Part shown: one piece after another, positions 1 to 64,000 of the stretch
Layout: each line of letters begins with the position of its first letter
How positions within the stretch are numbered: position 1 is the stretch's first letter
NCBI GenBank assembly: GCA_951406725.2
Contig: OX597832.1
Span: 6,944,001 to 7,008,000 of the forward strand
Direction of reading: 5' to 3'
DNA length: 64,000 nt
From: Octopus vulgaris
Lineage: Eukaryota
Program-made: the position numbers and the translations under genes
The notes under the pieces: model-generated
Told to the model about the DNA's origin: nothing
The model's input: only the letters and a program-made list of their open reading frames with translations
The model's database searches: none

Positions 1-576
1 TAATCATATTTCTATATCTTTTGCTTGCTTAATAACAGTATATGTGGATAAATTGAAATCCTAAATAACCTAAAGTAATTTTCCAGAGTAACTAAATTAC
101 AGTTAGACAAGTCAAAAGCTTTCATGTGTTGATTCAGTTTGTTAGAAAGAGAAGCCAAATCACCTTCAAGTCACACTGTACCACCTTAAAAAAGAAAGAA
201 CACATTGAATATGGACTTGAAAAAGTGAAGTAGTCATTACTGGAATCCTTTTGATTGAAGGTCTGCTCAATCAAGGCTCATCTTTTGCTTTCTCAGCTTC
301 TAAAATGTTGGACATTTTCATCGTTCATCAATGCATTTAACCCTTTCTTAGAACGCAGTGATATATAAAAGTTGTTTATATAAAATATTTCGTTCATGTA
401 AAAATAATTATCAAATCTCTCACTAACCTTCAAGTACTTTCTTAATTAACTGGTACCTATTTTCAGATGGGTTTAATTATGCCCAGTATCTTCCTCAAGG
501 AAGCACATACCTAGTAATGAACCTTTAACTCCTTATCCTATGCATTTTTGTTATCAGCTTAATTATCAACAGGAAG

Positions 577-1113
577 GCATGTAGCTTAGCGGTTAGAGTA
601 TTCAGCTCACAACCGTAAATAGTGAGCTTGATTCCTGGCAGCATACTGTGTCCTTGAACAAGACACTCCATTTCACATTGCTCCAGTCCACTCAGCTGTC
701 AAAAGTGAGTTGTACCTGTATTTGAAAGGGCCAGCTTTGTCACATTCTGTGTTATGCTGAATCTCCCTGAGAACTACATTAAACCTTTAGCATTCAGATT
801 ATTCTGTCAAATGTAACACTTTTTCATTCAAATTGTTTTTAATTAATCCTGCATTATTTTGCAGCTTTGAAATTTTGATGATGTGACTGTACATTTTATA
901 ATGGCATTGAAGGGTAGGTATGATAGGCTTGATCCTGGATGGTTAGAACATAAAACAGGAAGTATATTTGGGCCGGATATGGCCGGTTTAAATGCTAAAG
1001 GGTTAAGGGTACATGTGTCTGTCAAATGCTCGGCCACTTGCACATTAATTTCACTAGTAGGCTGTTCTGTTGATTGGATCAATTGGAACCTATGTCACCA
1101 TAACTGATGGAGT
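577..1113 (+). mobile_element. tRNA-derived SINE interrupted by a TTAA MITE
   Basis: tRNA-like head (gtagcttagcggttaga...ttgattcc); 3' part matches the intact copy at 21970-22356; sequence rejoins across 783-1002. Confidence 0.7.
783..1002. mobile_element. piggyBac-type MITE family A (TIR ccctttagcatt, TTAA TSD); other copies 5227-5457, 45537-45756, 49355-49564
   Basis: TTAA flanks (779-782, 1003-1006), terminal inverted repeats, four homologous ~220-bp copies. Confidence 0.85.
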
Positions 1114-1114
1114 G

Positions 1115-2723
1115 CTATTTTTTTCTTTTATACATCAACAACTATATGGTTTGGCCATATGAACTCTGTTAATATACACGATTGTTATATTCCTTAAAAC
1201 TGAAAGGCACACAGAAAATATCAATTAACTTTTGCTAGAAAAAAAAACTGAAAAATAAAAACAAAACCAAAGAGCTGACAGTTACTGCCTAACATTTAAT
1301 ATTTTGTCTGAGATTAGCATCTTTCTTCAATGATTATTAAAATCATTTATGAACTGTCATTAAAAAAATTAATAGATTTTGTTATGCAAAATTTTGTGAA
1401 AATGTCAACTTCTCCATGAGAAAATTTGATATTTCTAAACCTTTTCATTAGAGATAAATAAACAGTCAGCATTAAAATATACTCTTTTTCTATAACCATT
1501 GTTAAATAAACATGTACAGAACATAGGTTCAGAATTTGAAAAATAATAATAAATTTGAACAGTAATGATGAAGTCAATAGTGATTAATTAAAACATTTAT
1601 TTTGAGTATGATCATGAAAAATAAATGTATGCTTAGTTCTGTGAAGCATATGTTTATAAAACACTAGTTTCTATTTCAAGTAAATTCACAACAACAGGAC
1701 AGACAAGAAACAAAGCAGGCTTATGATTTTTGCAGAGTCCAGTAACATTTTATATGATTTTCATTTAGAATCCAACTACAATACCATTCAATTAGAAAAC
1801 AAAACTGTAAAAATTACAATCAGTTGTGCTACACTGAACAAACTTTTTAGTTTTTGGTGTTTGTATTGATTTCAAAGAGTAATTATTGATCGTGAAATAT
1901 CTTCTAAGAAATCAAAAAGCTGAAAAGTGTGTGTTGGGGGAGAAATGTCTTTTTCCTTTTTAACCTCTAATTTTATATGCAATATTATTTCACATATAGT
2001 GTCAAAAATAACCAATTTCAGATATGGACAATATGTATTATTGTCAACCTTCTTAGGTGTATTTACAAAGGAATAACTCTCAAGATGACTATTATTAACA
2101 GGTGTCATCAATAAAAAGACTAGATCAATGACTTACTAGGTAAGTTGTATGTCTTAATTTAGTTAGTTGCTGTTTGGTTATTTATTTATTTATTTAAATT
2201 AGAGACTTAATCATGTAAAACCTTAAATTAATAAATTTATAGACTTCTTAGCATTTCTAATAAGTGTGAAAAAAATATGCTCAAAAGACTTATCAGGGTT
2301 CAAAGTTACATATATAAAAAAATAACTGAAAGAAAGGGAAAATTCAAAGAAAAGTGACATACAATAAATATAGAACAAAAGTATATGAACAAGAACCATT
2401 ATAACTGATGTATGTGTGTGTGTGTGTGTGTGTGTGAGTGTGTTCAAAATGAAGATAGTTGCAATAATCTAAATATTTTCCTAATAGCTGTTATTAGATT
2501 GATCCTTAGGAAGAAATATATTATTTCCATATGGAGAGTCAAGATGTGTATTAAGAATATTGGATGTTTCTCTAACAAATTGTTTCAGGTTACTTCAATT
2601 TTAGCACATACTCTGGATTTTTGGTCCTAGATTACTTTAAAAAAAAATTGAGAAAAGTAAATAAAAGGAAGTCTGGAGTAGTCAATGTTGAAGACAAGTT
2701 GTTAAGAATTACAAGAGCATGGT
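1115..2723 (-). other. Probable UBE3C 3' UTR with candidate AATAAA signals (2181-2186, 1596-1601)
   Basis: Stretch after the stop codon with no recognisable TE; TTTATT on + strand; true end unknown. Confidence 0.4.
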
Positions 2724-2894
2724 TTAACTGAGTTCAAATCCTGTAGCTGATTCAATTGCATATAGTAATTTACTTCTCATTGTCTCTTCATTGTAGAACT
2801 CGGGAAGCTTCAGTAAGTTCATACATGTACTAGCAGTGGGTAGGCGCTCCAATTCAGTACCAGCATTATGGATACAAAAGACTGGATATAAATC
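2724..2894 (-). CDS. UBE3C: UBE3C last coding exon (24 if exon 1 is missing): [56 protein letters not shown]
   Basis: ttctag acceptor; catalytic Cys codon at 2823-2825; stop TAA at 2724-2726. Confidence 0.95.
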
Positions 2895-5800
2895 CTAGAA
2901 AAAGAAAAATAATGGCACATCTTTATACAAATATCATTATCATCATCATCATCACTACTTTAACATTCTCTTTTCCATGCTTCCATGGGTCAGAAACAGT
3001 ATATTGAGGCAGAATTTCTATGGCTTGATGTCTTTCCTGACACGACCCTCCACCTGTTTCCAAACAGGATATTTCTCCCATGGGTAGGGGTATTTCCATG
3101 GATTACTGAAAATGAATGACACTGCTTGTGTGACAATGACACTCATTGACTACTATCACCTGATGTAAAGACAAGGTGACACAAAAACACACACATATGT
3201 GTGTGTGTATGTATATATATATATACTTTATTTAAAAGCAGCAGAAAATTTAACAAAACCTGTAACTCTGAGTTTCACTTTCCCGTTCGTCGGACAGTTT
3301 TTGCTAAAATAGAACTGATATGCCAATTCTATCAAGACTAGTATAAACGCTAGAATTGGCATATCGGTTCTATTTTAGCAAAAACTGTCCGACGAACGGG
3401 AACGTGAAACTCAGAGTTACAGGTTTTGTTGAATTTTCTGCTGCTTTTAAATAAAGCATATTACTCTACCCCTGGTATTTGAGTACTCTTTCTTCCACCT
3501 TGTTTCACATTTATGTATTTACTCCGGTATATATATAGACAGAGAATGAACATACTACTATTATGTTCTTAAGAATGAAATTAACCTCTCTGTTTATATA
3601 TCTACCCTCTTTTGTTGGCAAATGAAATAGGGATAAGAATGTGCATTGTCCGTTTAATTGGAAAATTCTATATGTGGCTGAAGATTGCTCGACATTTTAA
3701 AACTGATGTAATACTTACAGTGTTTAATAAAATGAAGTAGCATGAAATAATTGTACTACTCTACCTTGGATATCCTTGTTGCTTATTTTAATTATAATAA
3801 CCCCATTTGATTTATATGGATAATACCATACACAATTCTGGTGCCTTTAACTTAAGTACCATATTCATCTGTATCTAAATTTTGCTGAACTTATATATGT
3901 GTGTGTGCGTGCGCACAAACACACACACATACATATATATATATACACACATACAATGTGCTTCTTTTAGTTTCTATCTTCCAAATTCTCTCACAAGGTT
4001 TTTGTCAGTCTGGGGCTATGGTAGAAGACACTGAACCCAGAACCATGTGGTTGGGAAGCAAACTTTGGTGCTACTTTGGAATGTGATCTACAAGGGAGAT
4101 TACTTTAGGTTACCTTTTAGTTTATTTTACAATTTCTAAAAACCCGTAAGTTGTTGGCTAAAGATTTTTACAATGTGATCAGCGATGAGACGAAGGCAGT
4201 TGAATTCTTACAAGAAACTAGAAGACAATTGCATTTTTACAAGAAACCAGCATTAAATTCACATAATTTCTTAAGAAAAAGAAAGGTATTACTTTGATGT
4301 GTGATCTACATGAACAAATTTACTTTGGTGGGTCATCATCATCATCATCATTTAACATCTGTTGTACATGCTGGCATGGATTAGACGGTTTGACCAGGGC
4401 TGGCAAGGTGGTAGGCTGTACCAGACTCCCGTCTGATTTGGCATGGTTTCTACCGCTGGATGCCCTTCCTAGCACCAACCACCCCAAGAGTGTAATGGGT
4501 GTTTTGTATGTGCCACCAGTGCAGGTGCCAGTTATGTGACACCAGCATCAGCCATGAGTATGATTTCACTTGGCTTGACGGGTCTTCTCAAGCACAGCAT
4601 ATCGACAAAGGTCTCGGTCACTAGTCATTGCCTCTATGGAGCCCAAAGTTTGAAGATTATGCTTCACCTCATCCCATGTCTTCCTGGGTCTACCTCTACC
4701 ACAGGTTCCCTCCACAGTTAGAGATCAGCACTTCTTTACATACACAGCTGTCCTTGTCCATATGCATCACATGACCATGCCAGTGCATTCATCTCTCTTG
4801 CACACTACATCTGATGCCTCTTATACCTAAGTTTTCTCTGAAGATGCTTACACTCTGTTGAACATGCACACTGACATTGCACATCCAGCAAAGCATACTG
4901 GCTTCATTTCTTTCAAGCCTAATTATGTCATTGGCTATCACAGGCCATGTTTCATTGCCATGTAGCTTAGCTGTTAACACACAGGCATCATACACTCTGT
5001 CTTTTACCCTGAGGGAGAGGACCTTTGTTGCCAGCAGAGGCAAAGAGCTCTCTGAGCCATCATATTAAGTTCCCAGACAAGATAGCTGCATACCACAGTC
5101 TATTTGGCTAATATGTTTCATACCTACCTCTTAGTTGAGCAAATGAATCCAGTTGCTCCACTAATATATAAATGTCCAATGTTGTTAAATCCATTCAATA
5201 CATGCAGAATTGGATAACTGATTTAATCCATTAGCATTCAGATTACTGTCAAATGTAATTCTGATTTATTCATATTATTTTGATTTAATCATGCATTATC
5301 TCACAGCTTTGAGATGTGAGATAATGCTAGATTGATGTGATTGCTAGATTTTTAGGATGACATTGTAGGATAGGTGTGAGAGGCCAGATCTGGTTCATTT
5401 GAACAGATAGCTGGTTGAATATTTAGGCTGGATATGGCTGGTTTAAATGCTAAAAGGTTAAAAGAGTAAAAGGTGATAACAAAATTATTTTACAAGATTA
5501 ATAATTCAGAATAATACTAACCTTAAAACCCAGCAGAGGTGGCCGAGAACAGCTAGTTACAAATTTTAACAACTGCCTTAGTTGTTGGTCGGTCAATTCA
5601 TAGACAACTTTCCAAAAAATTTCTATCACAGGATGTTCAGCAGTAAAGCCCCCTGCAACAGAAAAATATTATATTAGAATAAACAAAAAATATGTAACAT
5701 AATTGTAAACAATTACTTCAGCAAAATTAGAAAATATCAACAAATAAAACTAATATTTAGAATATCCCACAGAGGTCAACTTAGCTTTTTATCCCTACAG

Positions 5801-8800
5801 GGTCATTAAGATAAAGTACCAGTCAAGTACTGAAGTTGATACAAAACTCCTTCCCTCAAAATAGTTGGCCTTGGGTCGCAAATATAAAATATATGAAAAT
5901 ATTTGGTGAATAGGCATAGGCATAGCTGTGTGATAAGAAGCTTGCTTCCCAACCACATGGTTCCAAGTTCAATCCCACTGCATGGTGCCTTCAAGGGGAT
6001 TTTTACTACAGCCTCAGGCTGACCAAAGCCTTGTGAATGGATTTGGTAGATGGAAACTGAAAGAAACCAATATTTTAAATATATATATACACTTTATTAT
6101 AAAAGCTGCAAAATAGTCACAGAACTGTTACTCCGAGTTTCATGTTCCCGTTTGTTAGACAGTATTCATCACAACTACCTGATGAATGAGAATGTGAAAC
6201 TCCGCGTAACAGTTCTGTGAATTTTTGTGACTTTTATAATAAAATATATTACACTACCTTTGGTATTTGAGTACAATTTTTTCCACATTGTTTGCACTTA
6301 TGTGCCTAACTGTGTGTGTGTGTGTATATATATATACAATAATAATAATAATGAAATTATTGTATACAGTGCTCAGGTGCACCACAACTTGTCAGACAGT
6401 GCGTATAAAGTATATGCAGTAATGTACAAATGTCTGGAAAGCGAATAATGTATGAGTCAGATACATGCTGGTGTGTATATGGAGAGGAGAAAATCAGGTG
6501 TAGTGTTGGCGAATCTCAGAAAGCATGGAAGTTTTGAAGGATGCAGTGCTCCGACAACTAACAACTGATGCCGGCAGTTTGTTCCATGCTTCAGCAACTC
6601 TCAGCGTGAAAAAAATGTTACCTAAAGTCATGGGAGCTGTGCTGTTTTCTGACTTTGTAAATATGTCCACGGGTGTTAGACGGGTGTACACAGGGGTTGG
6701 ACAAAATAATGGAAACACCTAGCATCATAGCTTCATAATTTTGAAATATCTATAAAACCGTCAAAAGCTTGTATACTTTTATGTTGTTTGATTTATTATT
6801 AGTGATGCTTAATATGTTTTGCTAAAATTGCTGTTTCTTTTCTGATATCATAATAAAAAGATAATCAAAATTCATTAAAATGACAGATCTATTGGACTTT
6901 CAAAGAGGTCAAATTGTTGGTGCTTGTATGGCAGGCGCTAGCATAATGTAAAAAAGCTGAAATGTTTGGTGTATCAAGAAGTAGTGTCTTGAAAGTAATG
7001 ACAGCCTTTGAGAAAGAGGGAAAAACCTCCTCATTGAAACAAAACTCCAGAAGAAAACCTAAGCTTTCAGATAAGGACTGTCGAACTCTTATGTGAATTG
7101 TAAGGAAGGATCACAAAAGTACAGCTCCCAAAATTACTGCAGAGCTTAATGACCACCTTGAGAACCCAGTTTCCACAAAAAGTTTTTGCCAGGAGCTGTA
7201 CAAAGTCAGATTTCACGGGAAGGCTGCAATCAGAAAACCACTACATTCAAAAACAAACGTTGCAAAGCATTTAGAGTGGAGTAAAAACCAACAGAATTGG
7301 TCCCTAGAGCAGTGGAAGAATGTTATTTTCTTGGACGAGCCATCCTTTACCTTATTTCCAACCACCGGCCAAGTATATGTGTGGAGACGGCTAAAAGTAT
7401 TTGACCCAGACTGCCTTCTTCCAACTGTTAGACATGGAGGAGGAACTGTGATGATCTGAGGGGCTATATCTTGGAAATCTGCTGGCCCAGTGGTTTCCCT
7501 TCATGGCAGAATTAACAGTCAAGACTATTTAAGGATTTTATGTGATCAAATTCATCCTATGGTTGTGGAAGTTCCTACACCTTGATCCTTGGATCTTACC
7601 TTTACACATCAATATATATATATATATATAAAAAAATACAAAATGGGACAAGAACGCAAAACATTCAAATAGACAACACAAAAAAACGGACGGGTCATTC
7701 GAAGCCTCTAATCTTCAGTCAAGAACTGGATCATCCTCGCAATTTCAGCTGATTAATCTTGATATATATATATACATATATAAAATCCTACACTAGACAT
7801 GTGCACTGGGACAATACACTTAATATAGATTTTTTTTAAAGTGGCTAGCTGGCAGAATTGTTAGCATGCCAGGTGAAATGTTTACTGACATTTCGTCTGT
7901 CTTTGTATTTTGTGGTCAAATTCTGCTGAGGCTGACTTTGCCTTTCAACCTTTTGGAGTTGATAAAATAAGTACCAGTTGAGTACTGGGGCGATGTAATT
8001 GACTTATCCTCTCGCACAAAAAACCTGCTGGCCTCGTGCCAAAATTTGAAATCGATGGAGATTCTTCTTATTAACCAAGATAATTCAAGACAGCAGTAGT
8101 TAATGTATGTGCACTTTCAACAATGAAAGCAGTATCAAAGAGTGAAAGAACATAATTAAGAAACTAACCTGAATAATTAGTGTGTTGTTTTAAGTCTTCG
8201 AGATTCACAGGTGTGTTGGCTCCAGATATCAGTTCTTGCAGTTCATGTTCATCAAACATACGCAACCATTCCAGATTGATTACATTAGCAAGACCTAATC
8301 GGAAAGCATGGCAATGAGGTCGAATCTAAAAAAAAAAAAGTTCATGACATTTTGAAATTGAAGTGAAAATTGTTATAGACACAAAAAATTTGAATGAAAT
8401 TGATAATGAAGCAAAATCTACAGACCTGCTTATTTAATTTATAATCTGCCATTAAATGGATATACTCAATCCGATTATAATTAGTTACTTGAATGTCTTT
8501 GCCACCTGGTTTTAGCTCCTCAATCTAAACAAGTATAAAAAAGAGAATCACAAAATATAAAAAACAAAATAAAGAAACCAAAGTCGGCATAAAATTTATA
8601 ATAAATTGATTTTGATTTTAAATTGTAGTTTTTATAAACAGGTAGGATCCTTTTATCTTTTTCTTTTTACCTTTACAGTTGTTTTAATCATTAGACTGCA
8701 GCCATGCTGGGGCAATGCCATGAAGAATTTTAGTTGAACAAATCAACCCTAGTAATTATTTTTTAAAGTACTGTTTTCGTTTCTCATTGTGTTCAACGTT

Positions 8801-9873
8801 TTTTTGATGTCCTGTACCCATATATGCATGTATATATACATATATATGCATGTATATATATATATATATATGTATGTATATATGCATATATTTATATATT
8901 ATTATATGATCGAATGCCACACATCCTTTTCCAAGTAAGTTTTATCTTAATAATTATGATGTGCACTCTTCTTCTTCTTCTTTACTATCTCTTCTTTGTC
9001 TGTCTCTCTCCCTCTCTTGTTCTTCATCCTTTCTGGTTTTCTCTCCCACCCTTCCCTATTCTCCTCCTCTCCCCTTCACCATTCCCTCCCTCACTCCTCC
9101 TCCTCGACTCTCTCGTCACTGACACGTGATGAGAGGGAATCCATCTTTCCAACTACTACCTTCACAAAGACTAAACAGGCATATCCTGTCTCTTCATAAG
9201 CTCATCTCCTTAAACATTCAGAATAATTTTTCCATCGTCTTGGCTTAACAGCCCTCATCTTTTGTTTTTACTGTTTTGTTCTCATTGTTCTGTCTTTTAC
9301 TGTTTTTACTTTTTTTATTGTTTTCACTGTTTTGTTCTCACAGTCCTGTTCTTGTTACCACTTTCCCCCTCTGCAAAAAATGCCAAATTTTATTAAATTT
9401 GCTTTGCGGGAAGGACTGTTTCAATGAAGTCACTTCTTGTCCTTACCTTCGAAATGCAGAGTAGATGAAACAAGGACAACTGAAGAAGGGGAATATTCTT
9501 TTTGTTGTATGTCCCGTTTCTCTGTTTTTTTTGTTGTTTGAAAAAACGTTTGTTTCTGTTTTTTTTAATGTTTTCATTTCTCATTGTGTTCAACGTTTGA
9601 TGTCCTGTACCCATATATGCATGTATATAGGGAGAATTCACGAAAAAAACAAAAAGACGATGACAGATGGTGTAGAAAACAAACAAGTGTATATATGCAT
9701 GTATATATGTAGGTTTGTACATATATGTATATATGTAAATATTTATATATTATTTATGCTATTATATATATATATATATACATTATTTATGCTATTATAT
9801 ATATATATATTATTTATGCTATTATATATATATATATTATTTATGCTATTATATATATATATATTATTTATGC

Positions 9874-9909
<36 letters not shown>

Positions 9910-12900
9910 ACACACATATATATATATAAATATATCTCAGAGAATACAAACATTCTCAGTAGTATGATGAAGCATTTTATGCATTAAAAGTAATGAACAC
10001 AACAATACCTTTGTAACTCCTAGTTCATTTGTAACGACAGTGAAATCCAAACCCAGATCAACTACATCTTCCTTGTAAGTCTTCAAAAAGAGTAGATTCC
10101 TGTGAGAGAAAATTGAAAATATAGACTTCATTATAGCTGGTTATATTTATTTGAAATTTTATGTATGAAAGAAAGTATGTGTGTGTGTGTATATATATAT
10201 ATATATTACGGAGATGTACTCGCATAGCAAGTAATTTGATCTGAGATCGTGTGCTGAAACGAAAACAATTGAGCGTGGAAGGTGTTTATAAGCCATTTAA
10301 GAAACACACAAACGTTCGATTGATTCACTCCAACATTTAAGTTTAATTTGTCAAAATATTTTCGTCGCTAAAATCCGCGACCTGTTCACTGACAAAAATC
10401 CGTGCTGCATCACGTGCTGAGATGCAGCACGGATTTTTGTCAGTGAACAGGTTGTGGATTTTAGCGACGAAAATATTTTGACAAATTAAACTTAAATGTT
10501 GAAGTGAATCGAACGGTTTTTGTGTGTTTCTTAAATGGCTTATAAACACCTTCCACGCTGCAATTATATATATATATATATCATCATCATCATCGTTTAA
10601 CGTCCGCTTTCCATGCTAGCATGGGTTGGACGGTTCAACTGGGGTCTGGGAAGCCCGAAGGCTGCACCAGGCCAGTCAGATGTGGCAGTGTTTCTACAGC
10701 TGGATGCCCTTCCTAACGCCAACCACTCCGAGAGTGTAGTGGGTGATTTTATGTGCCACCGACACAGGTGCCAGACGAGGCTGGCAGACGGCCACACTCG
10801 GATGGTGTTTTTTATGTGCCACCGACACAGGTGCCAGACGAGGCTGGCAGACGGCCACGCTCGGATGGTGTTTTCTTATGTGTCACCGACACAGGTGCCA
10901 GACGAGGCTGGCGGACGGCCACGCTCGGATGGTGTTTGTTACGTGCCCTCAGCACGGAGGCCAGTCATTGCGGTACTGGCTACGGTCACGTTCGGATGGT
11001 TTTCTTATGTGCCACCGGCACTGGTACCACAAGGATACAAATTCCATTGATGTTCATCTATTTTGATTTGGTTCGATTTGATTCGATTCTCACTTGCCTC
11101 AACAGGTCTTCACAAGTGTCACAAGAAGGAAGGTATGCACAGGTGGACTGACTACGTCCCAGGTACGGGCCACGGATTATGGCTTCACTAGTCTTGCCGG
11201 GTCTTCTCACGCACAGCATACTTCCATAGGTCTCGGTCTCTAGTCATTTCCATGGTGAGACCTAACGTCCGAAGGTCGTGCTTCACCACCTCGTCCCAGG
11301 TTTTCCTGGGTCTACCTCTTCCACGGGTTCCCTCAACTGCTAGGGATTGGCACTTTCTCACACACCTATCTTCATCCATTCTCGCCACATGACCATACCA
11401 GCGCAATCGTCTCTCTTGCACACAACAACTGATGCTTCTTAGGTACAACATTTCTCTCAAGGTACTAACGCTCTGTCGAGTAAGTACACTGACATTACAC
11501 ATCCATCGGAGCATACTGGCTTCGTTCCTCACGAGCTTACGCATGTCCTCAGCAGTCACGGCCCATGTTTCACTGCCATGTAGCATAGCTGTTCGTACAC
11601 ATGCATCATACAGTCTGCCTTTTACTCTGAGCGAGAGGCCTTTAGTCACCAGCAGAGGTAAGAGCTCCCTAAACTTTGCCCAGGCTATTCTTATTCTAGC
11701 AGTTACACTTTCAGCGCACCCACCCCCACTACTGACTTGGTCACCTAGATAGCGGAAGCTATCAACTACTTCTAGTTTTTCCCCCCGGAAAGTGACAGAA
11801 GTTGTTTTCTGCAGATTTTCGGAGGTCAATGCTCCAGAGCACCTGCCACATACAAAAACTATCTTCCCAGTTAGCCTACCTTTGACATTGCTGCACCTCT
11901 TATGTGTCCATAGCTTACACTGGGTACATCTTATAGAGTTTCTACCTACACCTTTTCTACAGATCGAGCAGGGCCATCTTCCTGAGGATATTTGTGGGTT
12001 TTCTACCTTTCTACTTATTAGTATTTTGGTTTTAGCTAGGTTGACTCTAAGGCCCCTCGATTCTAAACCCTCCTTCCACACCTGGAACTTCTCCTCCAGT
12101 TCTGATAGTGACTCAGCGATTAGAGCGAGGTCGTCAGCATAGAGGAGCTCCCAGGGGCAACCTGTCTTGAATTCCTCCGTTATTGCCTGGAGGACTATGA
12201 TAGGAGGGGGCTGAGTACTGAACCCTGGTGGACCCCAACCTCTACTTTGAATTCTTCTGTGTACATGTTGCCAACTCTAACCTTACTTACGGCATCTCTG
12301 TACATGGCTTGCACAGCCCTCACCAGCCATTCATCTATCCCTAGTTTCCTCATTGACCACCAGATGAGGGATCGGGGGACCCTATCAAAGGCTTTCTCCA
12401 TGTCAACGAAAGCCAGGTACAGGGGCTTATCCTTGGCTAGGTATTTCTCCTGCAGCTGCCTTACCAGGAATATAGCATCAGTGGTGCTTTTCCCTGGGAC
12501 AAACCCAAACTGCATCTCATCTAAACTAACTCTCTCTCTAATTAGTTGGGCTATGACCCTCTCCGTAACCTTCATTACCTGATCCAACAGCTTGATACCT
12601 CTGTAATTATTTGTATCCAGGGCATCACCTTTACCTTTGTAGCAGTTGACTAGTATGCTGCTACACCAGTCATTGGGTATGACTCCTTCGTGTATCACCT
12701 GGTTGACTATACGGGTGACTAGGTTATAGCCGACACTGCCAGATATTTTGAGCATCTCTGCAGTAATTCCTGATGGGCCTGGGGCTTTCCCTGTCTTCAT
12801 GCTTCTAATTGCCTTAGCTACCACGGAACTATCAACTCGGATAGCTGGTCCCTCTGTTGGGTCAACATTTGGCAGACTCTCTTTATCCCATTCATTTTCT

Positions 12901-13958
12901 TTATTTAGCAAACTTTCATAGTGGCATCTCCAAACCTCTCTCTTTGCATCCTCATTTAGCGCAAGTGAACCATCATCCATGCGAACACACTTCTCTCCTA
13001 CCACATCACGATTCTCTCTCACACACTGTCTTGCAACACGAAATACCTCAAGTCTTTCATCCTCACGGCTCAGAACATTGGCAAATTTTTTCTTATCCGC
13101 TTCCCCTCTGGCTAAATAAACCTGTCTCCTAGCTTCCCTTTTGGCTGTCTGATACAATTCCCTGCTACCACCGTTCTTCCAGTCCTTCCAAGCCTGTCTC
13201 TTTTGTCTAATAGCCCCGTCAACCACCGTGTTCCACCACCATGTAACTCTGGGTCGAGATGGTACTTTGCTCCATCCACAGATCTGGTCAGTGGCTGTCA
13301 GCAGATTGTCCCGTAGGAATCTCCAGTTGTCTTCCACATTAAGTGGAGCTATATCCCCTTCTATTTCGTCAGAGGCTTCGAGTAGTATGTCTCTAAATCT
13401 CTGTCCATTTGCAGGATCTTTAAGCTTCCAGACCCTTCTCCTCCAAGCTGGTCTTCTTCTGGGCAACCATTTAGCTCTGATCCTGAAGTCGCTAACTACT
13501 AATCTATGTTGGGGAGTACATTCTTCGCCTGGGAAGGTTTTGGCATTTATAATCAGCCCTCTTATATATATATATATATATATATCATCAACATCATCGT
13601 TTAAAGTCTGCTTTCCATGCTGGCATGGGTTGGACAGTTTGACTGAGGACTGGTGAGTCAGAAGGCTGCACCAGGCTCAATCTGATCTGGCAAAGTTTCT
13701 GCAGCTGGATGCCCTTCCTAACGCCAATCACTCCAAGAGGGCCAGTCAGGTGGTTCTGGCATTGGCCACACTCAAAAGGTGTTTTTTACATGCTACCTGC
13801 AGGGGAGCCAGTCCGGCAGCACTGACAATGACCACGCTCGAATGTTGATTTTCACATGCCACTGACACATGTGCTGGTAAGGCAATGTTGGCACGATCAC
13901 TTTCAAATGGTGCTTTTTATGTGCCACCGACACGGGAGCCAATATGTGTGTGCGTATA

Positions 13959-13990
<32 letters not shown>

Positions 13991-14202
13991 ACTATAAATA
14001 AGGGTATCTGAGAGACACCACTATGCCGAAATAGCAGTCAGGGATTGCTATTTCGGCATGGTGGTGTCTCTCAGATACCCTTATTTATAGTTGTAAAAAA
14101 ATTATTACCTTTGTATGGTATTTATTCCCATGTTGGTCACTTGATAATACCAATATTTAAATATCGATATTATCCTTATTTATAAATTTATATATATATT
14201 CA

Positions 14203-14290
<88 letters not shown>

Positions 14291-15928
14291 AAAGGAAAGG
14301 AGAAGAAATATAGTGGATACTTGGCTAATTTTATTTGTATCATGAAGATTTAGGATGAAAAGGAAGCAAATCAACAAAAGGAATAAACATAAAAGAATCC
14401 TACATGTGTTTCAATCCGGCCATTAGGTTTCAATCATCAGTATTTAAGTGATGTTAGATGTAAAATAACCCCACATTATGTCCAGATAATATCATAGAGT
14501 GATGTTTACTTTCTGGTGGTGAAAAACGAAATAACTAGGATGAGGACTGTGTTTTCAAATATTCAAACATAAACAATAATTTATTAGGATGCCGAGTTCA
14601 TGTGGGGAGGTATTTATTTCCTAATGAAATTATGCTAAAATACTATAATCTATTTGAAAAATAGGCATATAAGTGTTAAGGGACATAAAGTAGTCATTTA
14701 ATTATAATACGGGCATTCCATTGTTCAGAGAAATGTTATTGTTTACATACTTCAGGGATGAATTTAAATATTCATGCGGAAAAAAAAAGGGTATAGAGAG
14801 AAAAATAGATTTTTTTGAGGGGGAAAAAAATATGAAAAGTGACAAAATGGGAGAAAAGTGGGAGAAGAAACACAGACTTTTTATATGGGGTATAAGATAC
14901 AAAAAAGATTAAGAAATAAAAGAGAAAAAGGGAAAAGTTATTTTATATTTTATACCCTGATATTATTTTAGAACGTAATTTGGAGAAAAGTTATAACTGT
15001 TATTATTTAGCATTTCAATGGACTAAGATATGCTTTCCATTGTTCAAAGAAAAAGTATTAGGTATATAAAAGATTATAGTGCACTTACTTGTGACAGGAA
15101 TTTATATTTTTATGTGAAAAAAAAAATTTTTTTTTAATGTGATGTAGTTCATAATTCGTTAGATTTTTTCTGAAGTATAATTGTAAGAACTAGTAATCTC
15201 CCTTTGTTCGTGTGGTTAAATTTTTTTTTTTCCTAGGGTTTTACTATAATTCTGCTTGGTCATTTGTTACTTCACACTTTATGCTTTAGTTTGTTAAAGA
15301 GAGGAAGAGGTGGAGTGAGTGACAGAATAAGAGAGAGAGAGAGAGGGGGGGAGAGAGATAACAGCCGGTCACTTCCACTAACCACATTCTCATGCTGTTA
15401 GTGGAAGTGAGAGGTGAAGAGAAGGAGAAAGAGAAAAATGTTAACAATGTGAAGAGGGGAATGGCATGGTTGAAAAGTCTGTTGAAGTAAGAGGTAGAGA
15501 GAAAGAAATATAAAGTGTGTAACAAGGAAGTTTTAAACATAATATATTATTGTAACTACAGTTTGGATGTTACTTTTTTTAATTTGCAATGGAATTAAAA
15601 CTAATGATATGAAAAAACATTGCATGCATTCTCTGTATTGTTTTGTGTACATTAATTGTGTATAATGTAAAGTAATTAGGATAAAATATTGCATAATAAG
15701 GAATATGCAATTACATACTGATCTTGCAGTTTCAACAGAATTCAATACTAATGAATTAATGTATTAAGCATTTTATTCCTTTATTTGTTTCAGTCATTTG
15801 ACTGCAGCCATGCTGGAGCACCACCTTCAGTTGAACAAATCAATCCCAGGACTTATTCTTTGTAAGCCTAGTACTTATTCTATCGGTCTCTTTTGCTGAA
15901 TCGCTAAGTTACAGAGATGTAAACACAA

Positions 15929-16009
<81 letters not shown>

Positions 16010-19000
16010 TATACATATACGACAGGCTTTTTTTCAGTTTCCATCTACCAAATCCACTCATAAGGCTTTGGTCAGCCCAAGGTTATAGTAGAAGACAGCT
16101 GCCCAAGGTGCCATGCAGTGGGACTGAACCTAGAACCATGTGGTTGGGATGTAAATTTCTTACCGCACAGCCACTCCTGCACCTATAGTTAAGAGGCAGC
16201 ACATATGCTAGAACACAATAACCTCCTAAGCAGATCTGGTGCAGATATGAGTAGAATATGGGAACCGGTATTAAGAAAAGATACAATAACCACACATTGT
16301 AAATACATGGAGACAAATAAACACATATACATACACATATGATGGGCTTCTCTCAGTTTCCATCTATCACATTCACTCACAAGGCTTTGGTTGGCCTAGG
16401 GCTATAGGGAGAAGACACTAAGCCAAGATGCTACACAATGGTACTGAACCTGAAGCTATGTGGTTGGGAAGCAACCTTCTTAAACACACAGCCATAGATG
16501 TGCCTTGCTAACATGACAACAGACTTACCTGTACATTTCTGGGTCAAGTGAAGCCAAGTGATGAATATCAAGATCAATTCCATGGCGATTCAGAATTTTC
16601 GAGAGAAAAAACTGAGCAAAAGGTAACTCCACCAAGAGGTTTTCATAGAGAGCCTAGAAGAGTGAACAAAATGTGTCAATGCCATTAATAATGAAAAGAG
16701 ATTTGATTTTTGTGAGAGATTGATGAAACATTATCATTTACAATAAAGACACTAACTTTTGTTTGGTCTGTAGACCAAATACAACTCCTTCAACTCCAGG
16801 TTATTTCATTAAACACTGTAGACAGCTATGTATCTTGACTCTGAAATTGTTCTTTCCGACAAAACCTAGTTCATTTCACATCATTTTAAAATTTAAGTTT
16901 TACTTTCACAACAATATTATCCAAGCATTTTGTTTGCTTTTAGTTTACATTTCTTTCATAAAAAAAGAAATTATTATACAACTACATCACTGAAGGCAGA
17001 AACTTTGGATTCCCTCATGCCTTATTCATGGTAATAATGCTCTTTAAATTCACTTCAAAAATTTCTCTTAAATCAGGATTTCTTTTAGCCAAAATATGAA
17101 AAGTGCCAAGAATTACATAATGATTATCTCAACAGGCACCAATTTATCTGTAATTGTTAAACATTGTTTCGCATTGAATCAAAAAGCTTTTACTGTCATT
17201 ATGTACTTGGTTTAATATCTTTACATTAATGTGATTTTGAATGAAAAAAAAAGAAAAAAAAAACCGTTATGTTCACAATTCCCCTTTAAGCCAATGCTTT
17301 AGTCTGATTTTTGATAGATAAAATAAACAAAAACTATACTTATTTCCCATAACATTCCTGCAAGGAAATAATAAAGGTCTGAATAATTTTTAAAAGAGCA
17401 GGTAATTTAGGTAGAGAAGTCTGTCATGTTGATGACTATCAATTTGATCTCTTGAGTCAAGAGAGATTTTATGCTAGAATATGTGCTGGATATAATTTGA
17501 GTGGATAAGAACATTACTTTTAGTTTGGAAATAAAAACTCTTAGCTCAAATTTGGCCTAGTACTATATACACTCAGGAGGAATAAGATACTTGATAATGA
17601 TTAGAGGGGGAACTAACTGAAACAATGGAAATAAAAAAAAAAGCAATTATATATAGGTTTTAATAGTCTTAAAAATTACATTATTTTAACAACAAAATAC
17701 ATCTCAGACACTAAATTACTATTTGATAAACCAGTGAAACATGAAAAGTACCTTACCTTTCCTAACATTCTCCCGAGGAAATAATAATGGTCTGTATAAT
17801 TTTCAAAAAGGGCCGGCGCTTGTGGATTTGGGTAGAGTAGTTTGTCATTGGTGTATTTGAAGAATCCACGATTAGGATCAAAGCCTGTTTTCAGTAATTC
17901 TGACAAAAACTCCCGGGACAAACCTCCACCATCAATTCCTGCTTCATCAATTCCAGCAGAGTTCACCAATCTTACTCGTAACCGCAGTTTCAAGTTTGGT
18001 TCTGATTTATTAAGAAATTCCAGTATACAGCAATTATATTACATAAGTTGTAAAAATATGAAAAACTTTCATCAAAGATATTCAATGAAGAAATCAATAC
18101 AACCTTGAGGTTAATGGCTATTATACAATACTTTACAACACAAAGTCTGTTATAAAACTTCTCTTTTTTTTTTAATCTACATTCATAACATTCAAAGCTG
18201 ACCAGAAGAGAATTAATGCATTCGAGCTTTGGTGTTGGAGAAGACTTTTACGGATTCCATGGACAGCGAGGCTCACCAATGGAGAAATTCTTAAGCAGAT
18301 AAAGCTGAAAATGTTGCTAGAAGCTAGGATCACCAAGCATAGATTGGCATATTTTGGTCATATTATGCGGAGAAAATCCCTGGAGAAGGACATCATGCTC
18401 GGAATGGTCAGTGGCAAGAGAGGAAAAAGTCGACCAAGAACCCGCTGGCTTGACACCATCAAGAGTGATACAGGAATGGACATAGCCAATCTGAAAGAAG
18501 CGGCCCAGGATAGAACTGACTGGAGGACACTGATCCAACGAGTGACCGCGAGTCGACTTCAACTGAGCGGTTAAGAAGAAGAAAGACATTCATAACACTA
18601 AAATGTTCTTTGTGCATTAGTTTATTCCATATTTTGAGGTGCTTTCTTATTGAAACAAATTTGAGGAAGCCTGTCCGTCAATTAACAAGAGGACTGAAAT
18701 GTCAACAACAAACCACCAACAATTCATTTTTGCTTTACAGTGATCTTGCTATGTACATCAGTGAGCTGTGGCCTTCCAAAAGTACCTACTTTATAGCTAG
18801 GTCTACCAAGTCAACAAGAGTTACTGCTTTTATGAGGAACACAATGCAGTGTTAATGACAAAATACAAACTGTTGGCCTTTTGACCGGTTAGTCTGAACT
18901 CTACTGACTCTTAAAACACAGAACAAGTAATATATATGTATATATATATATAAAGAATCAATAACTACCATTCTCTTCGGATAATTTTTCAAAAGCATCT

Positions 19001-22000
19001 TCATAAATATAGTTTCTTCTAATCTTGATATTAATTGATAATCCTAATTGAAAGTTGGTCATTTCAGACTGATGTTCTTCTCGATCTTGATTAACATGTT
19101 GATGGAGGATCTAATAAAAGATAATGGTACACAAAATGTAGCTTTTAACTTCTAGGAAAGAATTCTTCAAAAGTTCAGTATCAAATTGGATGAGGAGAAT
19201 GAGTGAACAGGTGTTCTTTTTTTGTTTGGCTTAATTAATTGACAAAGACGAGAGTTGATTGAAAATTACCAAAAGCTGAAAAGGAATCAAGAGTTGAATG
19301 AAAACAAAATGGAAAGGAAACATTAATGTTTGTTAAAAAGGAAGGAAAGAGTAAGGATTTAAACATTAGGGTAAGAAATTTTGTCAGCGATTGTGCACCC
19401 TCAAAACACATTTCCCACTTATATCACATCCACTGAATGCAGCTGTTTCTTCTACTCTTCCCATCCCTTCTCTGTCATACACAACACACTCTGCATAAAG
19501 CATTTCTCAAGCAATCCTCCTAGCCAGAAGATTTTTGAAATATTTTCCTTGTCCATGTTTTCTCTACATCTGTCAACCCACAGAAAATCAATCTGAACAT
19601 TTACCACATTGATCTCACCAGCTTGGGAGGGACAACAAAGGTCATGGATATTTCTTTTTCTCAAAGCAAAAAAAAAATAAAATAAATAAATAAATAAAGA
19701 AAGAAAGAAACCATGGTCATACAAGATTATACAAGCATCTTTTCTTTTTAAATATCCCCTGTGATAATGAAGGAATCACTACACACTTAATGATATAAAA
19801 ATCCTATGTGCCATGTATAACATGGCATGCAGTGAAGAATTAAAGGATTTTAGTTAGGCCAAATAGTAGTGATTGTGGATTCAGAGTAAATGTAGTACCT
19901 GCTCATTTTCTTGCTTTACTCAATGGACAATTAAACATTTTCTCAGACTCAATGTCTCATATAAACTATATTGCAACAATTCACATGAGATGCTATTAGC
20001 TCCGTTCATTAAAGTAGGTGAAAACATTTATAGCTTAAAATATCACTATCGATAAATACTTACATTTTTTTTTCTCCTTTTCTCTATTTCTATAAAATGT
20101 TGATTCATTTGAAGTCATTACAAAAATGAAACATTTGATATATTTTCCAATACTCAATTTTATTGTTCACTAACCAAAGATAGATAAGGAAAATATAGAA
20201 TTTCTGTATGCAATATCACATATTCAATAAAGTCAATGGGCCAGATGAAATGAAGTTATGGGCTGTAGTTTACCAACTGCTTGGCTTAAAGTCTAACAAA
20301 GCATGTGTAATTGTAACACATGTACCACTAGCAAAATATCTTTGTGTATGAATCAACATCAGTTCGCTCTCAAATCACAAACATTCTAAATCTGAGCAAC
20401 TTAATCCCAAACTAATTAATTAATTTAAGTAACAGAGCTTATCTACTGATCTTAGCAAATCATGAAAGAACTTTGGGATTCAGGCTCTTTTCGTTTCCCA
20501 TTAATCTTTCATAACCATAACTTCACCAAGCATATCAAAAGTTTTGCCAGAATAATGGGAGATGCTACAGTATCATTTAATCATATGTGTATTCCTAGTA
20601 AAATTATTCTTTGCCATTGTATCTTTAGCTTTTATCTTTTGACTTGCTTCAGGCATTAGACTGTGGCCATGCTGGGGTACCACCTTGAAGAATTTCTAGT
20701 CAAATGAATCGATTCCAATACTTAATTTTTAAAGCCTGGTACTTATTCTATTGGTTCTCTTTTGCCAAACTGCTAAGTCATAGGGATGTAACATACCTAC
20801 ACTGGTTGTCACGTGGTGGTGGTGGTGGTGGCGAGGAGACAAAAACAGATACAAAGACACACACACACATACATAAGACAGGCTTCTGTCAGTTTCCAGT
20901 TATCAAATTCACTCACAAGACTTTGGTCAGCCTGAGGCTATAGTAGAAGACACTTGACCAAGGTCCCACACAGTGAGACTGAGCCCAGAACCATGTGGTT
21001 GGGAAGCAAGCTTCTTAATACACAGCTGTGCATTAAGAATAAATTTTAAAATTTAAATAAGATATTAAACTTGTAAATTAACATACCTTAATTCTTTCTG
21101 TAAAACGCACTACAAATGGCAGTTCAGTAAGGATGATAAGGTTCCAGATGTCCCTTCCTGATAGTGGTGGTCCTGAATCTGGACCTGCACAAAAACAAAT
21201 AATTGATAGTAATAATAATCCTTTCTATTATAGGCACAAAGCCTGAAATTTTGCAGGGAAGGGATTAGTTGATTACATTGACCCCCAACTCAACTGGAAC
21301 TTAATTCATCAACTCTGAAAGGATGAAAGGTAGATCTTGACAAAATCTGAACCCAGAATGTAAAGATTGACAAAATGCCACTAAGTATTTTGCCCATTCT
21401 AGCAGGAGGAGAAGAAGAAGAAGAAGAAGAAGAAGAAGAAGAAGAAGAAGAAGAAGAAAAAGAAAAAGAAAAGAAAAAGAAGAAAAAGAAGAAGAAAAAG
21501 AAAAAGAAGAAGAAAAAGAAGAAAAAGAAGAAAAAGAAAAAGAAGAAAAGAAGAAAAAGAAAAAAAAGAAAAAAAAGAAAAAGAAGAAAAAGAAGAAAAA
21601 GAAAAAGAAGAAAAAGAAGAAGAAGAAGAAGAAGAAGAAGAAGAAGGATTATTACTATAATTAGGAAACTATTAACTGTACAATAGCTAGTTAATATAGA
21701 TAGTTCTTTCTACTATTGACACAAGACCCAAAATTTGGGGGTGAGGGGGCTAGTTGATTACATCAACCAATACTTATTTTATCAACCTTGTAAGGATGAA
21801 ACACAAAACCAACCTCAATGGTATGTGAACTCAGAACATAAAGAGACAGAAAAAATGTTGCTTAACATTATGTTCTGGTGTGATAATGATTCTGTCATCT
21901 TTCAGCCTTAATAAAGATAGGTAACAATAATATTTATTACAAGTGAACACATAACTGTACATAGAGTATGTGGAAGCACTCCGTCGGTTACGACGATGAG

Positions 22001-51000: not shown

Positions 51001-53594
51001 TGCAGGACCTGTATAGTGCCACTGTACAAGGGGAAAGGGGATAAATGTGAGTGTGGAAATTTTAGGGGTATAAGTCTGTTATGTGTGGTTGATAAACTGT
51101 ATGGGAGAATTCTGATTGTAAGGGTGAAGAACCAGACAGAGAATGTACTAAGGGAGGAACAATGCAGTTTTAGGAGTGGAAAGGGGTGTGCAGATCAGAT
51201 ATTTGTAGTAAGGCAGATGTGTGAGAAGTTTTTGGCAAAAGGGAGTGATGTATATTAGACTTTTATGGACCTAGAGAAGGCATGTGTCCGTGTGGATAGG
51301 GATGCAATGTGGCAGGTATTGCAGTTGCATGGAGTAGAGGGTAGATTGTTGAGAGTTGTACACAGTTTCTATAGAGAAAGTAGGGCATGCGTTAGGGTAG
51401 GTGGTGAATTAAGTGAGTGGGTTGATGTGAAGGTGGGGTTAAGACAGGGTTGTGTGATGTCTCTGTGACTGTTTAATCTATAATGGTGTGGTGAGAGAGG
51501 TGAATGCTAAAACCTTTGGCAGGGGAGCGCAAATGGTAGGAAAAAATGGAGAGAAATGATAGGTGAGTCAGTTGTTGTTTGCTGATGATACAACATTGGT
51601 GGTGGATTCAGAAGAGCAACTGAGGAAGCTGGTGGTAGAGTTTGGAAGAGTGTGTGAGAAAAGGAAACTGAAAGTGAATGTAGCTATGAGTAAGGTGATG
51701 AGATGTTCAAGAGATGGAATTGCTGGTAGGATGGATGTGAGTATAAATAGTGAGATGTTAGAGGAGGAGAGTGTTTTTATGTATCTGGGATCTCATGTGA
51801 CAGCAGATGGGGGGGGCTGAGGAGGTGGGATATAGAGTGATGGAGGTGAGTAAGATACTTGGAGTTGAGAAAGATATGCTGAAAGATAAAGGTTGAGTAT
51901 GAAAGTGAAAAGAGGTGTGTACGAGGGTGTGATTGTGTTGACATATGATGCAGAGACATGTGATCAGAAAAAGGTGGAAAAGAGGTGACTAGATGTGTAT
52001 GAGATGAGATGTTTGAGGGCTATGATTGGTATGGCACGAATGGACAGGATGAAGAATAAGGAGGTACAAAGGCAAGCAGGAATGAGAGAAAATCTATGTA
52101 TCAGAATGGATAGATGAATGTTGAGGTGGTTTGACCACATGGAGAGGATGGATGAGGAGAGGATGGTAAGGAGGATGATGAAGACAGAAGTGGTAGGCAG
52201 CAGAACCAGAGGAAGACCTTGGTTTGTGTGGATGGATGAAGTGAGGAAAGATTTGGTGGTTAGAGGTGTTGCAGTGAGAGAAGCAAGAGAGTTTATAAAT
52301 CATAGGGAAGCTTGGAGAGTGTTTGTGGGACAGATGAATGAATTGATGTTGCCCAAAGGGGTACGGAACCAGCATGATGTGGTGGGGGTAAATCAGCATA
52401 TGCTGTTGGGCCCTGCTGTTGATATCAGGGATTTGCTTTCAATGCCTTGACCTGAGCATAGGACGAGGCTCACCTCATTGAGCTGGGAAATGAATGGAAT
52501 GCTTGGTGTGTGTCTTGTTGTGCATTCCATTCATTTCCCAGCTCAATGAGGTGAGCCTCGTCCTATGCTCAGGTCAAGGCATTGAAAGCAAATCCCTGAT
52601 ATCAACAGCAGGGCCCAACAGCATATGCTGATTTACCCCCACCGCATCATGCTGGTTCCGTACCCCTTTGGGCAACATCAATTCATTCATCTGTCCCACA
52701 AACACTCTCCAAGCTTCCCTATGATTTATAAACTCTCTTGCTTCTCTCACTGCAACACTTCATCCATCCACACAAACCAAGGTCTTCCTCTGGTTCTGCT
52801 GCCTACCACTTCTGTCTTCATCATCCTCCTTACCATCCTCTCCATGTGGTCAAACCACCTCAACATTCATCTATCCATTCTGATACATAGATTTTCTCTC
52901 ATTCCTGCTTGCCTTTGTACCTCCTTATTCTTCATCCTGTCCATTCGTGCCATACCAATCATAGCCCTCAAACATCTCATACAGGTAAATAATAAAGTAT
53001 ATATATATATATACACACGCACACACACTCATACAGATTCATATGTGTGTTTCTGTGTACATATATACATGCACACAGAGGAAGAAAATGAGGAGTAGCT
53101 GCAACCAAACTGAAAATAATGTCACAAATGGAAAGATTTCATAGAAATTACTGTAATGATTGCAAAATAAAGAATTAAACTTACTTCTTTTTTTCTAGTC
53201 CGATAACCTCTGAATAGGGTTTGGATCTTAACAGCACTTTCATTTTGTATTCTCAGTTCCTAAATCAAAAGATGAAAATGTTTCAACTTGAAGAAAACCT
53301 CCAAAACATACATAGAAAGATACAAAAAATTTCCACCAAACACGTATAAAAGTATGGATCATCATCATTTTAATGCCCGCTTTTCCTTGCATGAATTGGA
53401 CAGATTTTCTATGGCCTGATGCCCTTCCTGTCACTAGCCATCTTCTGTTTCCAAACAAGAAACTATTTCTACGTGGACAGCCATATTTCTGCAGAACATT
53501 GGGAATGAAAGACATTGTGTGTATGACAGTGACAACCATTTTACAACTGTCTGCAATATCAAGACAGGAAAGCACAAACACACACACTCACCCA

Positions 53595-63335: not shown

Positions 63336-64000
63336 TATACATAAACAAAACACATAATCGAGGAGGTGTTGAAAAGTTTCCGGCTTTGGATAAAAGAAAA
63401 TACAGGAGGATTAGTTAATTAAGATTTTATTTAACATGTTCCCCTCTCACATTCACACATTTATTGCTGCGGTCCTTCAGTCTTTCTAAGCTCTCTAAAA
63501 GAACTCGGAAGACCGGGGCTTCAACCAGGCCTTTCGCGACACCTTTAAAGGCAGGAAATTTTCAGCACCCACCGTCCTGTATGTGCGTGTATATATACAT
63601 ACATATATATATACATACATATTTATATATATATATATTAGTTCGTTTAGATAACACTGTTTAGCCAATACATTTAGTTTCCAACTTTTCCAAAAGCTCA
63701 GAATAGGCTTCTCATAAACAAGATTGAGTCTTGAAGCCTTTTCGAATTTGTACCACAGCACTGCATCAGGTCCAATATAGAAGGGAAGAATTAATGTAGA
63801 TACATACATATATCTTCGATAAAATACGGATATGAAAGTCAGCTTTAGAAAAATTTAAACCTGTTATGCAAATCATTTTTTAATGCAATTTCTATGTGTT
63901 TAATTTTTTCTAGTTTTTAAGAAATTTATAATTAATATTTTAACCGAATCTATGTTGTTATTTTATTAACGCAGGCAATAGTGCATAATTTTATTTTTAC

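Follow-up and report, generated by a model that had tools for sequence, protein, structure and literature searches.

Intronic hairpins in an octopus HECT ligase gene read as short insertions of two Penelope-like element families

Introduction

The closest described relatives of the DNA studied here are Penelope-like elements (PLEs), for which a layout with an inverted arm, a tail, a (TA)n target and a hammerhead ribozyme in the pseudo-long terminal repeat (pLTR) is already known (PMC8557442, PMC3846280, PMC4209133; these and the other papers named below are cited for the passages that bear on our subject). A PLE protein has been reported to nick and extend both strands of its target and to use mainly uncleaved RNA, on which reverse transcription begins at two internal sites, one on each side of the tail (Frangieh et al., PMC11167929). 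How the head-to-head arms and the tail form, and whether the template is sense or antisense, is called open in the parts of PMC3846280, PMC8557442 and PMC11167929 that treat it. Here we analysed a window of 64,000 nucleotides of Octopus vulgaris DNA (assembly GCA_951406725.2, contig OX597832.1, positions 6,944,001 to 7,008,000). An earlier sequence-only reading of this window had pointed out three hairpin islands, numbered 1 to 3 below, in introns of a gene that it named UBE3C, and had interpreted them as coding-free PLE termini whose fold-back masks a ribozyme and so protects the host pre-mRNA. We found that the islands are very probably short insertions of two autonomous PLE families, in which the fold-back likely came from two cDNAs joined head to head at integration.

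Results

Three head-to-head hairpins from two unrelated families

All three islands are hairpins with a tail on a single side and (TA)n/(TG)n microsatellite at their borders, as the sequence-only reading had described them. An inverted-repeat search of the window found the arms of island 1 (3221-3331 and 3351-3461) to be 96% complementary and those of island 3 (10317-10411 and 10421-10515) to be 95% complementary; the complementarity of the island 2 arms is about 74-84%. The head-to-head geometry was also read correctly: the antisense arm precedes the sense arm whichever strand is transcribed.

Positions within the elements are given relative to the predicted ribozyme cut site. Island 1 consists of a tail-less inverted arm on the minus strand (3226-3352, -89 to about +37, including the hairpin loop) and a tail-bearing arm on the plus strand (3351-3529, from -68), joined by a 2-nt overlap; its tail (3457-3529, plus strand) continues, in full-length elements, into the 5' leader of the open reading frame (ORF). 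Island 2 (6093-6311, plus strand) is an older fold-back copy of the same lineage, 78% identical to island 1 and with its tail on the right. In island 3, the tail-bearing arm lies on the minus strand (10206-10411, -57 to +148), holds the first codons of the element ORF and includes a tail of about 60 nt (10206-10265, minus strand). A junction insert (10412-10419), which is a short local copy of element sequence, separates it from the tail-less plus-strand arm (10420-10565, to about +86), and the last base of the insert, G10419, corresponds to the non-genomic G that precedes the start site inferred for the element. Two unrelated families are present, as had been proposed: islands 1 and 2 belong to one lineage (family 1) and island 3 to a separate one (family 3).

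Both families trace to autonomous elements

The proposal that the islands are coding-free PLE termini was borne out, and extending the families reached an ORF with reverse transcriptase (RT) and GIY-YIG domains for both. Followed upstream, copies of island 1 run into a 3' untranslated region (UTR) and the end of a GIY-YIG ORF. Longer family 1 loci (L062 and L343) hold an ORF with the motifs RWK, DKT and CxCX5C and without CCHH; the CxCX5C linker is intact in L062 and changed in L343. The latter locus contains family 1 elements arranged head to tail (1732-8660, three tandem pLTR copies, 3,430-bp unit), with two open ORFs of about 710 aa and a canonical U4 core. RWK, DKT and CxCX5C mark the Hydra clade (Craig et al. 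2021, PMC8557442), and the stem I and stem III letters of the family 1 hammerhead are identical to those of the coral element Hydra-2_aMil in the supplement of that paper. Family 1 and the reference Hydra proteins were compared by eye.

Similarly, the ORF reached from family 3 in L119, a fold-back of the island 3 type at 4.8 kb, has RT motifs and GIY-YIG, with a CX3CxxC linker before GIY-YIG that fits the CX2-5CxxC linker of the Neptune/Nematis clades. In L147 and L156 the tail runs on into the ORF and itself encodes the first codons. The family 3 ORF has DKS where DKG is expected, and its clade assignment is provisional. In partial tandems (L342, L343, L147) a pLTR lies on both sides of the ORF. 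Atlas neighbours carry RVT_1 and GIY-YIG; Pfam and PDB searches with the PLE proteins gave no hit. The two parents can barely be aligned with each other, and exact 20/21-mers of the two families gave 6,531 and 9,203 matches. Judged by these motifs, islands 1 and 2 are ends of a putative Hydra-clade PLE, and island 3 is the end of a Neptune/Nematis-type PLE.

Copies share two 3' ends and vary at their junctions

We assessed the anatomy of the copies in a position sample comprising all family 3 sites among the first 100 k-mer matches (first 48.6 Mb of contig C1). After removal of one duplicate (L267, of L266), 85 sites remained; the rows dropped were second members of listed pairs, and L224 and L278 were reassigned by eye on account of a false extension into microsatellite. 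Fold-backs account for 45 of these sites and solo copies for 40, a few of which hold short inverted pieces; the full ribozyme is present in 28 of the 40 solos. All but three of the 130 arms end at one of two points, the tail end (72) or the tail base (55), and 40 of the 45 fold-backs pair one arm of each kind. This pairing fits the prediction from the two RT start sites of PMC11167929. At the other end there is a hard 5' limit: only 3/130 arms pass 5' of -65, and 58/130 end at -65 to -52. Among 21 family 1 sites we found the same two 3' ends, with several 5' ends near -44 to -48. The inverted, 5'-truncated copy with a one-sided tail that marks a PLE insertion was thus found here. The two arms of a single insertion differ less than random pairs do (5.5% versus 8.2%).

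Fold-back junctions differ in almost every copy and copy lengths grade up to 4.8 kb, which bears on whether the hairpin might spread as a fixed, non-autonomous unit, either like a miniature inverted-repeat transposable element or as a retrozyme. The best 40 matches to island 3 do share nearly one 360-bp shape, as such a unit would; that set was chosen by the query, however, and the shape is a query artefact. The varied junctions, the graded lengths and the solos, which make up half of the copies, largely refute a fixed unit, and we regard it as extremely improbable. Tandem short hammerhead units lacking an autonomous parent, which characterize retrozymes, do not describe these families, and no tandem short unit was seen among the copies.

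Large fold-backs also occur in family 1: among its first 100 matches (first 29 Mb of contig C1), 25 pairs on opposite strands lie no more than 332 bp apart, and another 5 are separated by 1.5-4.2 kb. A further family 3 fold-back lies 10 kb past the window (L063, 265-519), with a target duplication of about 13 bp and a complete ribozyme in neither arm.

A non-templated G at the family 3 5' limit

In long family 3 elements the base before the 5' limit is T or C. Exact matches nevertheless include 608 with G at this position, compared with 533 with A or C, mostly C. A second subfamily has C here in its genomic sequence, and 9 of the 14 C-type copies examined continue upstream; none of the 90 G-type arms examined continues into upstream element sequence. 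Because of this difference, we rejected a genomic G-variant subfamily as the source of the G. The limit sits at a sequence that resembles an acceptor, but a splice junction there was rejected as well: what precedes the G differs between copies, and in the 34 G-type solos it is mostly host flank. Among eight copies with a visible target duplication of at least 8 bp, the target lacks a G in five and has one in three. An untemplated G is accepted as the signature of cap copying for L1 and SVA (PMC4859970), and our literature searches found no report of such a signature in PLEs. Read from the DNA, the G, the hard 5' limit and the two fixed 3' ends likely record an uncleaved, capped sense RNA that was reverse-transcribed from two start sites within it.

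Two cDNAs joined head to head are the probable source of the fold-backs

Given the behaviour reported in PMC11167929, these ends are most simply read as products of twin priming in which a capped sense RNA serves, with its 5' part, as template. Two cDNAs would be primed on the two strands of a cut (TA)n target, with the element protein starting reverse transcription at two internal sites of the RNA, the tail end and the tail base. Synthesis would then run back to the capped 5' end or halt earlier, and the cDNA ends would join through microhomology or short templated inserts; a single cDNA would yield a solo. Because it is located between the start site and the tail, the hammerhead would be carried along as a passenger.

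Alternatively, the first cDNA could snap back and serve as template for DNA synthesis of the second arm, or that arm could come from self-priming on antisense RNA, with endonuclease resolution setting the difference in tails. Such routes have been put forward in PMC3846280 and PMC8557442. They would suit the junction inserts that copy nearby element sequence, and the two arms share rare variants at 7/168 sites, compared with 0.8% in random pairs. They sit poorly with several features: the arms are mostly of very unequal 5' extent, with element sequence in the loop; the G end is found on either arm (the tail is on 20 of 49 masked G arms) and lies at the sense 5' end; and tail-less solos occur (11/34). 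We therefore consider a snap-back origin unlikely.

Several observations weigh against twin priming on capped RNA. One copy (L052) reads as a clean, direct snap-back, and PMC3846280, in the passages cited, favours self-priming on an antisense template. Of six target duplications in unique sequence, three have a G at the critical position in the target itself. The other arm of a fold-back could also supply the G, and the family 3 start site is a position deduced from DNA. The G signature is established for family 3, with none shown for family 1, in which stem covariation across 20 copies did not exceed that in shuffles. Finally, the arms of island 1 reach -68 and -89, past the -44 to -48 limit of several family 1 arms, so that island 1 needs a longer template.

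Hammerheads in four of the six arms

The sequence-only reading had placed a minimal hammerhead in every arm. This holds for the four arms of islands 1 and 3 and fails for both decayed arms of island 2: a core with a 3-8 pair, stems I and II and a palindromic stem III was found in islands 1 and 3, and not in island 2. A descriptor scan identified hammerheads at +3389, -3293, +10443 and -10389. A stricter filter gave 4 hits in the window, three in the islands and an unrelated one at 63369, against 0-1 in 10 shuffles, and a second descriptor gave 4 hits in the window against 0 in 6 shuffles. An Rfam search of positions 1-20000 (E<=10) returned no hammerhead, only miRNA-like hairpin noise.

The plus-strand hammerhead of island 1 (3385-3422), antisense to the host gene, is a minimal type I ribozyme with a U4C core, a 3-bp stem II with a GNRA loop and a palindromic stem III with a 1-nt loop; the second (3260-3297, minus strand), on the host-sense strand, shares the U4C core, but its stem II is reduced to 2 bp. 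The decayed island 2 motifs comprise one on the plus strand (6175-6212), with a canonical core and broken stems I and III, and one on the minus, host-sense strand (6125-6162), in which A replaces G5 and G8 and which is predicted to be inactive. Island 3 carries a minimal type I hammerhead on the minus, host-sense strand (10347-10396), with a G3-C8 core, an extra G after A9, a 7-bp stem I, a 5-bp stem II and a stem III that is a six-base palindrome without a loop, and a G3-C8 counterpart on the plus strand (10436-10485), antisense to the host gene. G3-C8 is fixed across family 3 subfamilies that differ in loop II, with stems and core constant, and family 1 stems are 94.5% paired in 20 copies. 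Natural U3-A8 and U4C cores are already in print (PMC3088659), and G3-C8 has been met as an engineered partial rescue (PMC11167929). Our literature searches found no report of a natural G3-C8 core, though Lunse et al. 2017, on PLE hammerhead variants, may contain one.

A peak of arm starts at the predicted cut site was considered and rejected: among family 3 copies, 8 arms start there after (TA)n, compared with 3 at a control position, which is not significant (p=0.11). In the family 3 sample L192-L281, eight arms start at +5 to +7, at the foot of ribozyme stem I; such starts may come from RT stalling where the ribozyme is folded, from cleavage products that were then trimmed, or from AT microhomology. 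Right beside island 1 lies a further repeat family (3556-3890, plus strand), here solo and antisense to the host gene, with a hammerhead-like motif (3678-3755) in which a long loop closes stem II. Relatives of this repeat were seen in other loci examined, some of them folded back.

Masking is predicted, and looks like a side effect of insertion

Folding predicts that the full hairpins form at -72 to -236 kcal/mol and abolish the ribozyme fold, in agreement with the masking that had been proposed: for island 3 the predicted probability of that fold is 0.05 in the solo arm and about 1e-48 in the hairpin, and the corresponding values for island 1 are 5e-4 and 4e-54. Since the predicted fold collapses in this way, masking is physically expected. 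The further idea that the fold-back safeguards the host pre-mRNA was not supported, given the many solos, the partial covering and the lack of extra decay in unmasked cores.

The corresponding hypothesis of selection supposes that fold-backs arise mechanically, that unmasked sense ribozymes cut pre-mRNA and are purged from introns, and that editing might reopen masked ones. The predicted loss of the island 3 fold fits this hypothesis, as do the fold-back state of all three family copies in the window, the antisense orientation of the lone solo ribozyme nearby, and the depletion of tandem retrozymes from Xenopus introns reported in the cited part of bioRxiv 10.64898/2026.07.22.740005. Older family 1 relatives also seem more often folded, in a biased sample. 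However, three fold-backs of three have a chance probability of 0.14, and the sense core of island 2 lacks G5 and G8. Moreover, the 45 family 3 fold-backs hold the core in both arms in 17 cases, and it is partly covered in 11, in the loop in 12 and absent in 5. Solos in the position sample did show more core changes (18/284 versus 20/603, p=0.049), a borderline difference that was not repeated in 90 copies selected without regard to the core, where 31/37 unmasked and 41/49 masked cores are intact (p=1.0); we therefore rejected selection on unmasked cores.

A single sense ribozyme with a stem III loop of 0-1 nt needs a second copy, and monomers were uncleaved in vitro (PMC4209133; monomer behaviour of minimal hammerheads is reviewed in PMC6765202), while the anole PLE ribozyme requires the element protein (PMC11167929). 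Each fold-back strand holds one sense ribozyme. The hammerheads of the three copies are likely little threat either way, because cleavage depends on a second copy and probably on the element protein as well. Together, these results suggest that masking is likely a side effect of insertion rather than a host safeguard, and we hold its selection to be distinctly unlikely.

Because hyper-editing is high in octopus (PMC5625713), RNA editing of the hairpins is plausible by analogy. Genomic copies carry no excess of the changes expected of ADAR (A>G 22/6544, T>C 34/6878), a comparison that concerns templates only. A still more elaborate reading, in which the stubs serve as a filter on the host side and as a latent switch, with solo sense ribozymes purged from introns, masked ones persisting, and A-to-I editing loosening the duplex for protein-assisted or trans-dimer cleavage, would be very improbable.

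The host gene and its surroundings

The islands had been placed in introns of UBE3C. One contig of a presumed-RNA run joins exons at 2450-2893 (the last coding exon and the start of the 3' UTR), 5521-5651, 8168-8325 and 8426-8526, all on the minus strand, which together translate as a HECT domain. Since these exons flank islands 1 and 2, both are intronic. Island 3 lies between exons at about 16540-16630 and at 10009-10099 that were both read from the sequence; presumed-RNA contigs do not reach it. The latter exon (minus strand) has AG/GT ends and an open frame, gives no Pfam hit alone, and has its acceptor 106 nt from island 3. The host is thus a HECT E3 ligase gene on the minus strand, and the name UBE3C itself rests on the sequence-only reading. 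Contigs of four presumed-RNA runs gave the exon joins and are uninformative on editing, strand or level.

Other repeats share the window. Long RT-like frames of a long interspersed nuclear element (LINE; 11188-13676, minus strand) lie in the same intron as island 3. Broken frames at about 6690-7580 (plus strand) presumably belong to a Tc1/mariner-like transposase, going by its motif. At 52004-52980, a LINE-like fragment forms an inverted duplication of 99-100% identity, either a recent inversion or an assembly artefact; its arms enclose a loop of 19 nt, and one of them has an internal deletion.

Discussion

Our results indicate that the locus itself is ordinary: two abundant retroelements have inserted here in a layout already described. 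More can be learned from the copies taken as a population, in which the two 3' ends, the 5' limit with its G and the scarcity of cut-site starts fit a capped, uncleaved sense RNA as template. This reading can be tested directly, and the cap-like G and the G3-C8 core are two additions of this analysis that are likewise open to testing.

Family 1 shares RWK, DKT, the CxCX5C linker, (TA)n targets and a pLTR hammerhead with the C-terminal endonuclease-containing (EN+) PLEs of the Hydra clade as described in PMC8557442, which also records for Penelope-13_HM an inverted 5'-truncated copy like those seen here. It is set apart by its 3.4-kb unit and by U4C in some subfamilies, and, by eye, its N-terminus and hammerhead are unlike those of Hydra-1_Obim. 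Family 3 resembles the Neptune/Nematis-type EN+ PLEs of the same paper in its RT, CX3CxxC linker, C-terminal GIY-YIG, ORF start inside the pLTR and microsatellite targets, and differs from them in its G3-C8 core and DKS motif.

The head-to-head arms have counterparts in the inverted pLTR and tail of Adineta vaga Penelope (PMC3846280) and in the opposite-strand pairs of minimal hammerheads in Schistosoma PLEs (PMC4209133), with which they share the junction palindrome, the one-sided tail and opposite-strand ribozymes 100-700 bp apart. Unlike those cases, as presented there, the octopus copies include thousands of ORF-less stubs, which permit end statistics, and their G end points to a capped sense template where the cited discussion in PMC3846280 prefers an antisense one. 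Closest in mechanism is the anole Poseidon element PAc in vitro (PMC11167929), with two RT starts bounding the tail, extension of both target strands and mainly uncleaved RNA, as we propose here; PAc belongs to a different clade, and cap copying and head-to-head joining are proposals of the present analysis. Animal non-LTR (long terminal repeat) retrozymes, as described in bioRxiv 10.64898/2026.07.22.740005, likewise carry PLE-related type I hammerheads without coding sequence; they are tandem units, whereas the octopus copies are single or inverted stubs of autonomous elements.

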